From an uncultured Parachlamydiaceae bacterium (GTDB lineage: Bacteria > Chlamydiota > Chlamydiia > Chlamydiales > Parachlamydiaceae), in NCBI GenBank assembly GCA_963752155.1, contig CAVVXH010000005.1:96001-160000 (forward strand): 64,000 nt of DNA, read 5' to 3'. Positions 1 through 15,792 of this stretch are shown piece by piece. A program made the translations under genes and the position numbers. The notes beneath the pieces were generated by a model. That model searched no databases. It was not told the origin of the DNA and saw only the letters and a program-made list of their open reading frames with translations. How positions within the stretch are numbered: position 1 is the first letter of the stretch; every line of letters starts with the position of its first letter.

Positions 1-803
1 ATAGCCCCTAAACCACCAGGTGTTAACAATCGATCGATGAACCAATTTTTCATTTGATCAATCGCTTGATTTCTAATGTTGCTGTGGTGGGCTACGCTAT
101 CGTAAAGGCGTAAACCCACATCAACTTTTTTTAATAGATTCCCTAAGAACTTTTGATTGTTTCTTGGCAGATGTTTTTTCCCAGTAAAGAGCTGATCTAA
201 TCGGATGTGGGTTAGTATGCGAGGTTTTGTACTATAAATGATTGAGAGCGGTGCAACAATTGTTCGAGTCCAAGCCGAAATTTCATAGAAGTTGAAAGTA
301 AACCATTTAGGAAAGAAAATGAGTTCAGGAATAATAGCAGGCACCTCATCCCATGTGCAAAGACCAAACATGCACATATAGATTTTTGAATAAGTATTTA
401 AAGCTTCCATTCCACCCAATGAACAAATTGTGTCCCTTGCTTTAATCATGTGCGGTTCATTTTCATCATTGTCAGCTAGGCGTAAGGCAAAATAAGCTTT
501 GACAGAGTTATTGACTTCGCTAGGTCCTCCATAGTAAAGTGGCCAACCGCCATCTTGATTTTGTTGCGAGCAAATATAGTTAACAAGTTTGCTTTGTTTT
601 TCTTTATCGACACGCTCCATAAAGTGCATATACATGATATAGTCAGATTCGAGGGCAGAGTCTCCGATCAATTCACCCACCCAATATCCTTCGTCGGTAT
701 GTTTAGAAAGGAAATCTTTTTGCGATTTTCTAATTGCTGTTTCTACAGCATTTTGCAGGATTTGGATATCGGTAAAATTAAGCTGGTGATTTGAGATCGG
801 CAT
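1..803 (-). CDS. shc: Squalene-hopene cyclase (N-terminal ~267 aa; continues beyond window start)
   Basis: Not in ORF track. Manual translation from ATG at 803 (GAGG RBS upstream): MPISNHQ...EGYWVGELIGDSALESDYIMYMHF...QQNQDGGWPLYYGGPSEVNNSVKAYFALRL...EPHMIKARDTICSLGG...NTYSKIYMCMFG...WDEVPAIIPELIFFPKWFTFNFYEISAWTRTIVAPL...GGLGAI. These are QW repeats and other hallmark SHC N-domain motifs; the frame is open to the edge. Confidence 0.93.
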   Translation of the reverse strand, partial: MPISNHQLNFTDIQILQNAVETAIRKSQKDFLSKHTDEGYWVGELIGDSALESDYIMYMHFMERVDKEKQSKLVNYICSQQNQDGGWPLYYGGPSEVNNSVKAYFALRLADNDENEPHMIKARDTICSLGGMEALNTYSKIYMCMFGLCTWDEVPAIIPELIFFPKWFTFNFYEISAWTRTIVAPLSIIYSTKPRILTHIRLDQLFTGKKHLPRNNQKFLGNLLKKVDVGLRLYDSVAHHSNIRNQAIDQMKNWFIDRLLTPGGLGA

Positions 804-888
804 ATTAAACAACCTCTTTATTCTTTTTTTTTACATTTTTTTTAATATATTTGTCAAGTTAGAATTTTAAAACAGATTGATTCTTTTG

Positions 889-917
889 TTGACATATTTA
901 GATTGTTATGCTATTTT
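889..917 (+). promoter_or_regulatory. Putative sigma70/sigma66-type promoter in the divergent shc/hlyD intergenic region
   Basis: TTGACA (889-894), 17-bp spacer ending in TGC, then TATTTT (912-917). A second TTGACA lies on the minus strand at 852-857. Confidence 0.4.
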
Positions 918-982
918 CCGCTCAGTATCACACTACATGACCCCTATACGTAGGTGTAGGAAATGAATAGGCTAGAACAAAA

Positions 983-12698: not shown

Positions 12699-13610
12699 TT
12701 ATACTGAGGCGTATGTTGATAAAACTGTTATAAATTTAAGCCCCACAGTATTAGGGGGGCTTTTTTCCCATAAGCTTAACACATAGCCCCCATCCCCTGC
12801 TCCGGTGGGTTTTGCAGCTAGAGCTCCTAATTGGAATAAAAGATTAATGTGATCTTGCAGTTTAGAAGGAATTAATTCCCAATCTTTAAAGCATCTATAA
12901 GCTTCTTCAATGGCTTGAATCAATAGTGGAAGGCCACAAATGGAATTAGAAGCAAAAGCTTTTTCAATTAATAGGGTACTTTTTTTCATTGAATTAAAAG
13001 TCGACAGAGCTGCTTCAGGATTACATTGAACAAACTTTTTTACTTTAGCAACAGCGATCTTAGTTTGCCGGGTAAACCCTGAAAAAGAAATATAGAGGTT
13101 AGGTTTCCAATGAGGAATGATTTCTCGCATAGTTTCCAACTTTGAAAACCAGATAGGAGTATCATGCATCACTCCTACAATATCTAGACCGCTGCTTTGA
13201 CCATGGTAGTCATTTTCAAGTTGGCAAGAAAAATCAAAAATTTGGCTTTCATCTATCCAACCTTTCCAGGCCAGCCAACGGGAGATAGAAACACACAAGG
13301 CAGCAGAAAATCCAATTCCGGCACCGACGTCTATAGTATTATTAAGACGGAAAGCCCCTGTAAGCTGTTCTGGGGGATTTTTTCCCAGCAGCTTTAAACC
13401 TTTCGTTAAACTCTTCAAAAATACTGCTATAAGACCCTCTTCAAAAGAATCGCTTTCGAATTTCATTGAAGACGAAGACTCTTGGTAGTTTAAGTTAAAA
13501 AACCGTTCCTTTACAGGCAAAACAATAGCCGGAGAGCCTTGCAAGACCGAATGTTCGCCTGCTAGAATGCATTTTGCATGTGTAGAGCTTACAAAGTCAA
13601 ACCCGTTCAT
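12699..13610 (-). CDS. mvk: Mevalonate kinase (GHMP)
   Basis: KCILAGEHSV, GAGIGFSAA, HGQSSGLD and KPTGAGDGG motifs. Confidence 0.88.
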   Translation of the reverse strand: MNGFDFVSSTHAKCILAGEHSVLQGSPAIVLPVKERFFNLNYQESSSSMKFESDSFEEGLIAVFLKSLTKGLKLLGKNPPEQLTGAFRLNNTIDVGAGIGFSAALCVSISRWLAWKGWIDESQIFDFSCQLENDYHGQSSGLDIVGVMHDTPIWFSKLETMREIIPHWKPNLYISFSGFTRQTKIAVAKVKKFVQCNPEAALSTFNSMKKSTLLIEKAFASNSICGLPLLIQAIEEAYRCFKDWELIPSKLQDHINLLFQLGALAAKPTGAGDGGYVLSLWEKSPPNTVGLKFITVLSTYASV

Positions 13611-14647
13611 AAACTTGCGTCACTTAAATGATTGGCTTTTTGGAGTGAATGGTGGATACGTATGATGGCTTCATTATTCTGAGCATATAGCATAGAGTCT
13701 TTTAGAGTTTTTGCCACTTCAATTTTAGAAATTGCGACTTTAGTGTCACTCTTAAAAATGTCACCATTCCCTTCAGTATATTTTAAGGTTTTGACTCCCA
13801 TCCACATCGGAATGAGAAGAAATAATCTTACAGATTTTAAACTTGGAGGTACATGCAGAACATATTCTAGTGCTCCATCAAGGAGCTCATAAGCTTTCTT
13901 ATAGATGACTGATAACATCTGATGCGCTTGCTTTTGTTTGGTGGGATCGGAGAGGGATTTATAGTTCATCTCCGGCACCAAGGATCGAGGAATAAAAGAA
14001 TAGTTGTTCTTGAGATCCTTTCCAATATCTTTGAGGATATTAACTAATTGAAGTCCCACACCGAATGATTCGGCATAATCGCGCATTGCTTTCTTATTAT
14101 TATCATCAAAGGCTTCGGGATTTTCGAGGATGAACAATTCTGTTAATAAGTAGCCAACCGTGCCTGCGACAAAATAGCAATAGCGGTAGAGGTCATTAAT
14201 GTGCATAAGGGCATGGATTCCATCTCCACCCACTGGTCGATGGCTATAAATTTCCATGCCGCGACACATTTCCATAACCCATTGGTGACAAATACTCTGT
14301 ATCTTTTCCGATTTACGATTCAGAATATTTAATACACGTTCCATATGTATTGCTAAAAAGACTTCGGATTCACTTCCGGACAATCCCTGGACGCTTTGCG
14401 ACCATTCTTTGCGAGAAATTTTTCCAAGGAGAAATTGGCGAAAATTTTCATAGAGAACTTCTCGTTGATCAATAGGAAGTTTGGGATCATCTTCAATAGT
14501 ATCGACAATACGGCAAAGGAGGTAAGCGCAAGTCACACTTTCGCATAATTCTTTATCAAGCATAGAAATCGGCAATGCAAAGGAACGCGAAACTTCTTTT
14601 AAGCTCTTTACGCAAAATTCCCAATCTGTTTTTGTATCTGATGTCAT
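13607..14647 (-). CDS. Squalene synthase (single-enzyme FdfT/SQS type; squalene/phytoene synthase family)
   Basis: VSRSFAL flap, LCRIVDTIEDD, YCYFVAGTVG and GLQLVNILKD motifs; first gene of the mevalonate operon. Confidence 0.88.
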   Translation of the reverse strand: MTSDTKTDWEFCVKSLKEVSRSFALPISMLDKELCESVTCAYLLCRIVDTIEDDPKLPIDQREVLYENFRQFLLGKISRKEWSQSVQGLSGSESEVFLAIHMERVLNILNRKSEKIQSICHQWVMEMCRGMEIYSHRPVGGDGIHALMHINDLYRYCYFVAGTVGYLLTELFILENPEAFDDNNKKAMRDYAESFGVGLQLVNILKDIGKDLKNNYSFIPRSLVPEMNYKSLSDPTKQKQAHQMLSVIYKKAYELLDGALEYVLHVPPSLKSVRLFLLIPMWMGVKTLKYTEGNGDIFKSDTKVAISKIEVAKTLKDSMLYAQNNEAIIRIHHSLQKANHLSDASL

Positions 14648-14802
14648 ATAATTTCACTCTATTAGAAAGGCAAGTACTAACTAGAGTCACAGAATGCCCT
14701 TATAATGTCAAATTACTTTAAAAAAAATATGTAGTAAATGTAATTTTTTTTTACTATTAGTTAAGATGGAATACTGTTAAATTTATAGAGTAAGGAGATG
14801 TC

Positions 14803-15792
14803 ATGGTTACAAGATTTTACCTTAAGCAGATTCCGAAGAGCTGGTATGCTCTCGCAAGATCTTCAGATTTACCCCCAGGAAAAATTCTCACCAAAAAATT
14901 GGCAGGCCAAGATCTAGTCTTGTTTCGTACATTCTCAGGAAAAATATGTGCAATGGATGCATATTGTGCTCATTTAGGAGCTCATTTAGGTTATGGAGGG
15001 TCTATTCAGGGAGAACTGATTCAATGTCCATTCCATGCCTTTTGTTTTGATATTCAAGGGCAATGTGTTAGAGGAGCCACTGATAAAGCAAGCTGTGGCA
15101 AGTGTAAAATTAACACATGGCATGCACAAGAGGTCAATGGTTTTGTTTTGGTCTACTATGGGGGTGATCATGGGGAGGCTCCAACTTGGCATGTTCCGGC
15201 TTTGGATAATAAAGATTGGTCTCCGATTGTTGGATATCAAACGTTTTCTCTTGCATCACATCCTCTGGAAATCGTAGAGAATTTTTTTGATAAGAGACAT
15301 TTGTCATCTTTGCATGGATTGAATTCCGTTAAAATTATAAGGGATTTCATATCGATGGGTCCCTCTTCGTCAATCCGATATCAAGCCAATGGTTCTTTTG
15401 CTTTTGCAGGATTTAAACCTTCGAGTGATGCTGATGTGGCTGCTGAATGTTGGGGATTGGGTTATCATTTTTCAGAAAATACAGTAAAAAGTTACGGGAT
15501 AAAATTTCGTATTTTTTTCTCAGCTGTTCCGATTGAAGCCAATCATGTTCAATTATCGATTGCTTTTTCATTTTATGATAAGTTTACAGTTCAAAATCCT
15601 TTACTGCGGTGGATTCCGACATTACTTTTCAAGAAAGCGATCTTTATGGCAGTGCAAAAGCAAGCTGTTCATACGGTTCAAGAAGACTTCGAGATTTGGG
15701 AGCATAAAACATTTCTCACTGAACCTCCATTACTTCGCGATGAGCACCCTATTTCAGAATATCGGGAATGGGCTCGACAGTTCATCAGTTAG
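14803..15792 (+). CDS. Rieske non-heme iron oxygenase, Neverland/DAF-36/KshA-like
   Basis: Rieske CAH...CPFH, iron motif ENFFDKRHLSSLH, and C-terminal EDFEIWEHK...YREWARQF. Confidence 0.85.
   Translation: MVTRFYLKQIPKSWYALARSSDLPPGKILTKKLAGQDLVLFRTFSGKICAMDAYCAHLGAHLGYGGSIQGELIQCPFHAFCFDIQGQCVRGATDKASCGKCKINTWHAQEVNGFVLVYYGGDHGEAPTWHVPALDNKDWSPIVGYQTFSLASHPLEIVENFFDKRHLSSLHGLNSVKIIRDFISMGPSSSIRYQANGSFAFAGFKPSSDADVAAECWGLGYHFSENTVKSYGIKFRIFFSAVPIEANHVQLSIAFSFYDKFTVQNPLLRWIPTLLFKKAIFMAVQKQAVHTVQEDFEIWEHKTFLTEPPLLRDEHPISEYREWARQFIS

Follow-up and report, generated by a model that had tools for sequence, protein, structure and literature searches.

We report here a group of triterpenoid genes around a squalene-hopene cyclase gene (shc) in an uncultured Parachlamydiaceae bacterium (assembly GCA_963752155.1, hereafter G000) and propose from its gene content that this organism is likely to make its own simple C30 hopanoids. 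The window analysed is the 64,000-nucleotide stretch C5:96001-160000 of G000, an assembly of 3.13 Mb in 22 contigs that is 80% complete and 4% contaminated; coordinates without a contig label are those of the window. Genomes of its order encode proteins labelled Chlamydiae at NCBI, so that G000 counts as an environmental chlamydia; its size is not that of Chlamydiaceae. Together with its left flank the window contains a stretch of about 22 kb (C5:90.1-111.8 kb) that encodes every step from 3-hydroxy-3-methylglutaryl-CoA (HMG-CoA) to hopene, provided that a divergent GHMP-fold kinase gene within it is a phosphomevalonate kinase. An earlier note on this DNA, made from the letters of the window, had proposed a route from HMG-CoA to a cyclic triterpenoid, and on the same proviso that route is complete and apparently intact as far as a C30 hopanoid. 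It is probably functional, and a second, independent case would be present in another chlamydial lineage (f15). The enzymes are all of known types; what is new is the host group and the mosaic assembly of the pathway.

Results

The shc gene starts at an ATG at position 803 of the minus strand, preceded by AAAGAGG, and occupies 1..803 before continuing left out of the window to C5:94893. The earlier note had seen the part from 803 to the edge and had asked whether the gene was complete and carried a DXDD motif. With the left flank added shc proves real and not truncated: the reading frame is unbroken past the window edge and encodes 636 amino acids (639 from a TTG at 812), with DVDDT at residues 384-388 as the DxDD protonation motif and five QW repeats. 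Family assignments were scored as bits against the curated cut-off of each model (bits/cut-off). In the block running leftwards from 1..803 the scores were 660/431 for TIGR01507, 151/127 for NF002995 and 332/275 for NF045485. The first is that of the cyclase (SHC), which clears the cut-off across both of its domains and stays under those of the oxidosqualene cyclase (OSC; 195/851) and tetrahymanol synthase (189/500) models. SHC aligns over its full length with the enzyme of Alicyclobacillus acidocaldarius (PDB 1gsz, E 2.6e-143). At 22 positions whose functional roles in the active site we take as known, cation-stabilising aromatics included, 17 residues in the alignment are identical to those of the A. 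acidocaldarius enzyme, and the remaining five are residues present in 114-119 of the 119 closest homologues.

A single-enzyme squalene synthase (Sqs) with DTIED and NILKD motifs is encoded at 13607..14647 on the minus strand. By the criteria that the accessible part of PMC7306690 gives for separating Sqs from HpnC, HpnD and CrtB the protein is of Sqs type: its first motif has the DTxxD form (DTIEDD), its best match is Sqs (TIGR01559 at E 9e-39 against 1e-16 for HpnD) and neither an amine oxidase nor a desaturase gene adjoins it. Its best solved-structure matches are squalene synthases as well. The closest relative, on a 1.5-kb contig, is 84% identical, followed by two at 51% and 50% and then by named myxobacterial proteins, the nearest named ones belonging to Myxococcota/Bradymonadales at about 40-45%. 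In a metagenome scan by Sqs alignment, counted over the best 80 of 379 loci, HMG-CoA reductase (HMGR) is present in 31, an SHC-like end stands directly upstream in the top locus (L096) only, and no locus is chlamydia-like (GC 0.52-0.77, 35-46% identity).

The enzymes that lead to farnesyl diphosphate (FPP), which the earlier note had placed outside the window, were found 4.5-5.9 kb to its left. They are a type 1 isopentenyl diphosphate (IPP) isomerase (Idi, C5:90936-91532) and FPP synthase (ispA, C5:90095-90967), both on the plus strand and above cut-off. The FPP synthase is chlamydial, with 47-56% identity to its relatives (two genus mates share 68% with each other), and ispA is gone from the site behind ugd, its place in 4 of 4 relatives, and now lies beside idi near shc.

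The five-gene operon described in the earlier note is present on the minus strand at 14647-9486. It is headed by sqs, which is followed by mevalonate kinase (12699..13610), class II HMGR (11371..12687), the divergent GHMP gene (10486..11370) and diphosphomevalonate decarboxylase (MvaD, 9486..10484), with gaps of -4, 11, 0 and 1 bp. The frames of the pathway genes are all open. HMGR (TIGR00532 314/260), MvaD (TIGR01240 264/171) and Idi exceed their cut-offs; mevalonate kinase falls below that of its best family (TIGR00549 128/163) and is 48% identical to the copies in genomes G115 and G367. The GHMP gene gives no Pfam hit, and its position makes it the likely phosphomevalonate kinase. Its profile and predicted fold are of GHMP type, with TM values of 0.70-0.74 to mevalonate kinase and phosphomevalonate kinase structures alike, and its relatives sit after HMGR in G115, G367 and Legionella adelaidensis. 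The L. adelaidensis match is annotated as 'hypothetical protein' (L095:6983-7840).

In G115 an HMG-CoA synthase gene occupies the slot held by sqs in G000 and idi lies between the GHMP gene and mvaD, so that the cassette of G000 appears reshuffled. Its HMGR groups in a 14-row tree with those of G115, G367 and L. adelaidensis (SH-aLRT 99), apart from the chlamydial HMGRs of families f12 and f31. We took 73 genomes from 46 genera as the family of G000 and 401 chlamydial genomes as the phylum set, and since these genomes are related to one another all presence counts are descriptive. The cassette type of G000 occurs in 3 of the 73. Mevalonate genes as such are not new in chlamydiae, being already published for Waddlia (PMC2878342, accessible part) and HMGR being present in 22 of the 401 genomes. 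A different, short HMGR paired with HMG-CoA synthase in f17 (8 of 8 genomes) and in G369 (L021, L025, L026, L029-L033, L035) is a further mevalonate type in the phylum.

The genes dxs, dxr, ispD and ispH of the methylerythritol phosphate (MEP) pathway are intact in G000. ispF and ispG were not found in the assembly; the conserved neighbours of ispF are missing from it too, which indicates an assembly gap. Replacement of the MEP pathway by mevalonate was considered and rejected as unproven, the absence of ispF looking like such a gap. Because the four MEP genes are present the hopanoid route need not depend on mevalonate; the route from HMG-CoA of the earlier note was overstated in this respect. 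A leucine-derived source of HMG-CoA was also sought. Acyl-CoA dehydrogenase, carboxyltransferase, crotonase and AtuA-like genes are present in G000 and also in 2 genus mates, of which G133 has no HMGR and neither has the cassette kinase; for the leucine route itself G000 has a single biotin carboxylase, is without an HMG-CoA lyase domain and gave no assignment above a family cut-off. The gene sets at C5:26090-28748 and C2:220856-224566 (AtuA-like, crotonase, acyl-CoA dehydrogenase, carboxyltransferase and AtuA-ferredoxin-like genes) are genus-wide and represent a possible branched-chain or terpene acyl-CoA pathway.

In the search for SHC across Chlamydiae called for by the earlier note the enzyme was found in 5 of the 401 genomes (G000 and the separate 1.4-Mb lineage f15). 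In f15 (genus g52), with assemblies of 0.8-1.5 Mb, it is found in 6 of 7 genomes (G292:C6, G070:C3, G164:C13, G049:C6, G428:C57 and G429:C15; L009-L012, L078, L080). Core genes surround shc in the four f15 loci that were read over 20 kb. The Sqs-type gene lies elsewhere in all four genomes, and dN/dS in one f15 genome pair is about 0.10 (shc) and 0.04 (sqs). With about ten protein clusters at 56-98% identity, the clade is widespread in metagenomes. Like G000, f15 (MBM3195757.1, MBM3196993.1, MBM3194305.1) has an SHC above cut-off, with DLDD as its motif, an Sqs-type gene and neither hpnH nor hpnG (each 0 of 4). Unlike in G000 the genes are single and unclustered, HMGR and the Rieske gene described below are both lacking (each 0 of 4), and a sterol reductase is present in 2 of 2 genomes tested; none was found in G000. 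For chlamydial hopanoids f15 may serve as the better model.

To place both cyclases, a tree was built from 28 rows out of 73 obtained in two homologue searches (LG+G4, quick search; FastTree was used for row choice only). The SHC of G000 groups with Planctomycetota- and Polarisedimenticolia-labelled sequences, with Acidobacteria further out, and that of f15, which is 36-37% identical to it and of separate origin, with a different set. A single origin of the chlamydial SHCs is rejected (constrained monophyly, p-AU 6.7e-6), and on the sequences compared SHC is an independent gain in the G000 and f15 lineages. As each query supplied its own best hits as outgroups, and as the two chlamydial branches are long, the tree shows separation and not donors. 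An SHC search of genome contigs returned 2 loci only, both distant (40%, 49%), and the 7 top SHC matches that were looked up carry no taxon label and identify no donor.

The SQS_PSY family occurs in 15 of the 401 genomes, where eight members are of Sqs type and seven crtB-like, six of these beside a crtI-like gene (six were scanned by profile). The crtB-like genes (L043-L050; G289, G374, G188, G014, G162, G368, G360) stand mostly beside crtI- and lycopene-cyclase-like genes by eye, which suggests carotenoid synthesis in chlamydiae. The single acquired island that the earlier note had proposed is not borne out, as SHC, Sqs and the mevalonate genes differ in their nearest relatives and both FPP synthase and the exporter described below are chlamydial. 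Because its parts have different nearest relatives the region is a mosaic, and that this mosaic is gathered around one pathway suggests selection for clustering.

The shc gene lies within an exporter operon. A HlyD/MacA-type periplasmic adaptor (983..1903, plus strand) and the FtsX/MacB (DevC-like) permease of the same exporter (3439..4593, minus strand) are present beside it as the earlier note had stated, to which the left flank adds an ABC ATPase (C5:94129-94809, minus strand) and an outer-membrane channel (OEP; C5:92558-94060, minus strand). shc is placed ahead of the latter two, with gaps of 83 and 68 bp, and the adaptor is inverted with respect to the usual chlamydial order FtsX-ABC-HlyD-OEP. 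At the other end of the region the Rieske oxygenase reported in the note is indeed present at 14803..15792 on the plus strand, divergent from sqs with 155 bp between them. It has CxH...CxxH and mononuclear-iron motifs and a KshA_C domain, belongs to the KshA/cholesterol 7-desaturase-like group and scores only 52/600 as SdmA equivalog; no reductase gene adjoins it.

With these neighbours, the hopanoid might undergo oxidation by the Rieske enzyme and leave through the MacAB/DevBCA-TolC-like system for the outer membrane, inclusion or host. None of the four exporter components is disrupted, and together they enclose shc; DevBCA exports lipids in cyanobacteria. The best families of the Rieske protein act on polycyclic triterpenoids, and in L096 SHC and Sqs are followed by an open reading frame that is Rieske-like by eye (no Pfam hit). 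However, all 11 of the 11 top relative loci, which lie in genomes without SHC, have the same exporter in the standard order (FtsX-ABC-HlyD), with the channel gene visible in 8; it is a standard chlamydial operon and would be the older one, into which shc was inserted. As for the Rieske protein, any match is seen in 46 of the 401 genomes and a full-length relative in 7 others, plus one split copy, none of them with SHC, and there are no relatives in the 4 SHC-bearing f15 genomes. In G095 the relative is flanked by a P450, two methyltransferases, a glycosyltransferase, a 3-beta-HSD-like enzyme and a steroid 5-alpha-reductase. Both families are thus common in chlamydiae without SHC, which argues against the Rieske tailoring and the dedicated export of the earlier note, and we regard this combination as rather unlikely. 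The sterol-type context in G095 makes host-sterol modification the better guess, host sterols being a likelier substrate of the Rieske enzyme than hopanoids. The G095 locus (L212:2161-11783, on G095:C120), in a genome without SHC, is in itself a probable sterol-modification cluster, with SAM-type methyltransferases and also a sulfotransferase-like gene. It is quite unlikely that an O2-independent hopanoid, possibly Rieske-oxidised, would be shipped via the rearranged exporter to stand in for sterol in the membranes of the inclusion or the host; if true, this would suit a sterol-poor or anoxic protist host and reverse the usual lipid flow between chlamydia and host, the synthesis behind it having arisen twice in the phylum.

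Between shc and the mevalonate block lie, all on the minus strand, an IS607 element (5463..7729; serine transposase 7064-7678, TnpB 5626-7080) and three passenger genes that encode a 256-aa hypothetical protein (4671..5441), a helix-turn-helix (HTH) protein (7779-8399) and a TIGR04255 protein (8387-9232). In 6 of 6 plasmid records the trio is uninterrupted, its outer genes lying 0.67-0.81 kb apart (about 0.68 kb here minus IS607); it is a conserved mobile TIGR04255-HTH-hypothetical module, split here by IS607. Five more near-full copies of IS607, at about 99%, are found on C1, C8, C10 (two) and C11. Together with the inverted hlyD, the element and the trio are signs of an insertion hotspot. 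The genes could then be native to G000 and their clustering due to the hotspot, with a cyclase that is silent, decaying or making another product and an output of squalene or isoprenoids. The long end branch of SHC (0.8) is in line with this, as is an Sqs-type gene without SHC in G228, G236 and G275. Yet a full-length, ameliorated shc with all checked catalytic positions canonical would be hard to keep without selection, and Idi and FPP synthase have moved next to it; we judge a non-functional cyclase to be unlikely.

Further along C5 the same contig carries gyrAB and V-ATPase genes. In tetranucleotide distance the five 5-kb windows of the island fall at percentiles 6-46 of 613 windows, and in codon adaptation 13 island genes fall at percentiles 26-92. 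Chlamydial relatives at 47-64% exist for genes around shc and the mevalonate genes. A search for sequencing runs listed none of RNA and two of DNA, these with small shares. The pieces from the two were short and of low depth, fell in 26 and 25 of 30 bins and nowhere bridged the stretch. The flanks of IS607 (window 5462 to 7728) are joined directly in one contig from run X2, which is weak evidence (depth 2, a 38-letter short side, 80% likeness). The starts of C5, C6, C11 and C12 hold 2-5 kb of high-GC (0.57-0.76) foreign sequence and are probably chimeric assembly ends; C5:1-5000 has a GC of 0.65 and the highest tetranucleotide distance. An assembly artefact, in which shc and/or the mevalonate block were joined from another organism, for example via the repeated IS607, could draw on these foreign ends, on the near-identical IS607 copies and on the lack, among the public contigs aligned, of one that spans the region, but is very improbable, as the composition typical of G000, the insertion of IS607 into a known trio and the empty-site contig argue against a chimera, and the island showed no sign of the chimeric join that the earlier note had named as a refutation.

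Other features of the region were noted. A protein with two cyclic-nucleotide-binding domains fused to an Rce1-like (CAAX prenyl protease) membrane domain is encoded within the island at 1900..3414 (plus strand) and has several paralogues elsewhere in G000, for example at 40255-41397. A GH130-like gene lies at C5:91526-92527 (minus strand). Immediately right of the island a second HlyD/ABC/ABC-2/OEP exporter set occupies 17539-24236, and eukaryote-like or effector-like proteins are encoded at 16363-17463 (MYND zinc finger), 32113-35367 (1084 aa, with a weak FAD-binding match) and 38575-39888 (ankyrin repeats). A promoter/terminator scan was at chance (62 against 58 +/- 8.5 and 17 against 14 +/- 3.9).

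Discussion

The above results suggest that G000 makes hopanoids of the simplest kind. The check for hpnH, hpnG and hpnN called for by the earlier note was carried out and gave none in this 80% complete genome, HpnN being matched by a 17-bit fragment only against a cut-off of 752. No PF08491 (squalene epoxidase) match was found in G000 either, and the cyclase motif is DxDD and not of the DCTAE type. Since these three hpn genes and squalene epoxidase were not found, the likely products are diploptene and diplopterol. In our proposal the lower mevalonate cassette, the resident MEP pathway or both would supply IPP, the genes of both being seen and the flux inferred; Idi and the relocated FPP synthase would convert it to FPP, and Sqs would couple two FPP to squalene. 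The DxDD aspartate of SHC would then protonate squalene, whose O2-independent folding would give diploptene and diplopterol, an activity implied by the conserved residues. Conversion of squalene to these two products is established chemistry of the Sqs/SHC families. No side-chain extension is expected, hpnH and hpnG not being found. Most likely the hopanoid would order the bacterium's own membranes instead of host sterol. The gene cluster itself probably grew in steps, from a mevalonate cassette of Legionella-like kind that already circulated in the chlamydial family, a myxobacterial-type Sqs, an Acidobacteria/Planctomycetota-like SHC and native ispA and exporter genes.

Several observations weigh against hopanoid synthesis by G000. 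HMG-CoA synthase and thiolase were not found in the assembly, neither by Pfam nor by tblastn with the genes of relatives; they may lie in the unassembled 20% of the genome, and HMG-CoA or mevalonate could be supplied by such an unassembled gene, by the host or by the acyl-CoA genes of the genus. The nearest database relative of the G000 SHC is 51% identical and SHC is present in 1 of the 73 genomes of its own family. Sqs scores below the TIGR01559 cut-off (134/287), as do the five other chlamydial Sqs-type proteins scanned (100-125), and 52 of the best 80 metagenomic Sqs loci hold an OSC-type (sterol cyclase) motif and not SHC. Finally, completeness stands at 80%, and four contigs of the assembly, C5 among them, carry foreign high-GC sequence at an end.

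The literature within reach of the search, which took in few subscription journals and not the taxon labels of figures, where chlamydial SHCs could appear, contained no account of hopanoid synthesis in Chlamydiae. The accessible text of PMC12414744 mentions Chlamydiae only when expanding PVC for its 'SHC-like' clade, and the supplementary alignment labels the f15 protein MBM3195757.1 as a chlamydial squalene-hopene cyclase, which is thus public and undiscussed. In the accessible part of PMC7306690 Chlamydiae are absent from the text and Table S2 lists 46 Chlamydiia genomes and shows a single 1 for them, under an unreadable column heading. What is accessible of PMC12324291 (including its supplement) and PMC10697835 (including eight supplements) holds nothing on chlamydial SHC, and that of PMC3505017 nothing relevant. 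PMC9666466 deals with sterol reductases and its accessible text has no occurrence of squalene, hopan- or mevalonate. According to the accessible part of PMC10070321, chlamydiae take and modify host sterols and have active sterol methyltransferases, with no member shown making sterols. If Sqs and SHC were indeed gained together twice and independently, this would mean de novo synthesis of polycyclic triterpenoids in Chlamydiae, and obligate intracellular bacteria would join the possible sources of hopanoid biomarkers. This raises the question of whether the SHC lineages occupy sterol-scarce hosts or habitats.

Compared with known systems, the SHC of G000 shares with that of A. acidocaldarius the end-to-end alignment, the DxDD motif, the QW repeats and the aromatic cage; unlike in that C30 system of Sqs and SHC, the genes stand in an obligately intracellular phylum and inside an ABC exporter operon. 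Squalene would come from a single-enzyme Sqs, as described in the accessible part of PMC7306690, and G000 has no hpnCDE-type cluster. Myxobacterial sterol clusters (Sqs-HMGR-OSC) resemble G000 in the relatedness of Sqs and in a nearby HMGR, but carry an OSC-type cyclase whereas G000 carries SHC, with no squalene epoxidase found. Waddlia chondrophila, another environmental chlamydia with a mevalonate pathway, is reported to carry the whole mevalonate operon and just one gene of the MEP pathway (PMC2878342, accessible part), whereas the G000 cassette lacks HMG-CoA synthase, is headed by Sqs and is accompanied by four MEP genes. The closest parallel to the cassette is in Legionella, whose mevalonate genes, with those of Coxiella, are covered in the accessible part of PMC9803151. 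L. adelaidensis (NZ_LR134433.1) shares with G000 an HMGR (51%) directly followed by the same divergent GHMP gene (36%); its locus differs in a type 2 Idi, that of G000 being type 1, and has neither Sqs nor SHC in a 14.8-kb stretch. Legionella is described as having no canonical phosphomevalonate kinase (PmvK) and mostly no HMG-CoA synthase (HmgS) in the accessible part of PMC13001223. These are the same two gaps as in G000, and the GHMP gene is a candidate for the 'missing' phosphomevalonate kinase of Legionella.

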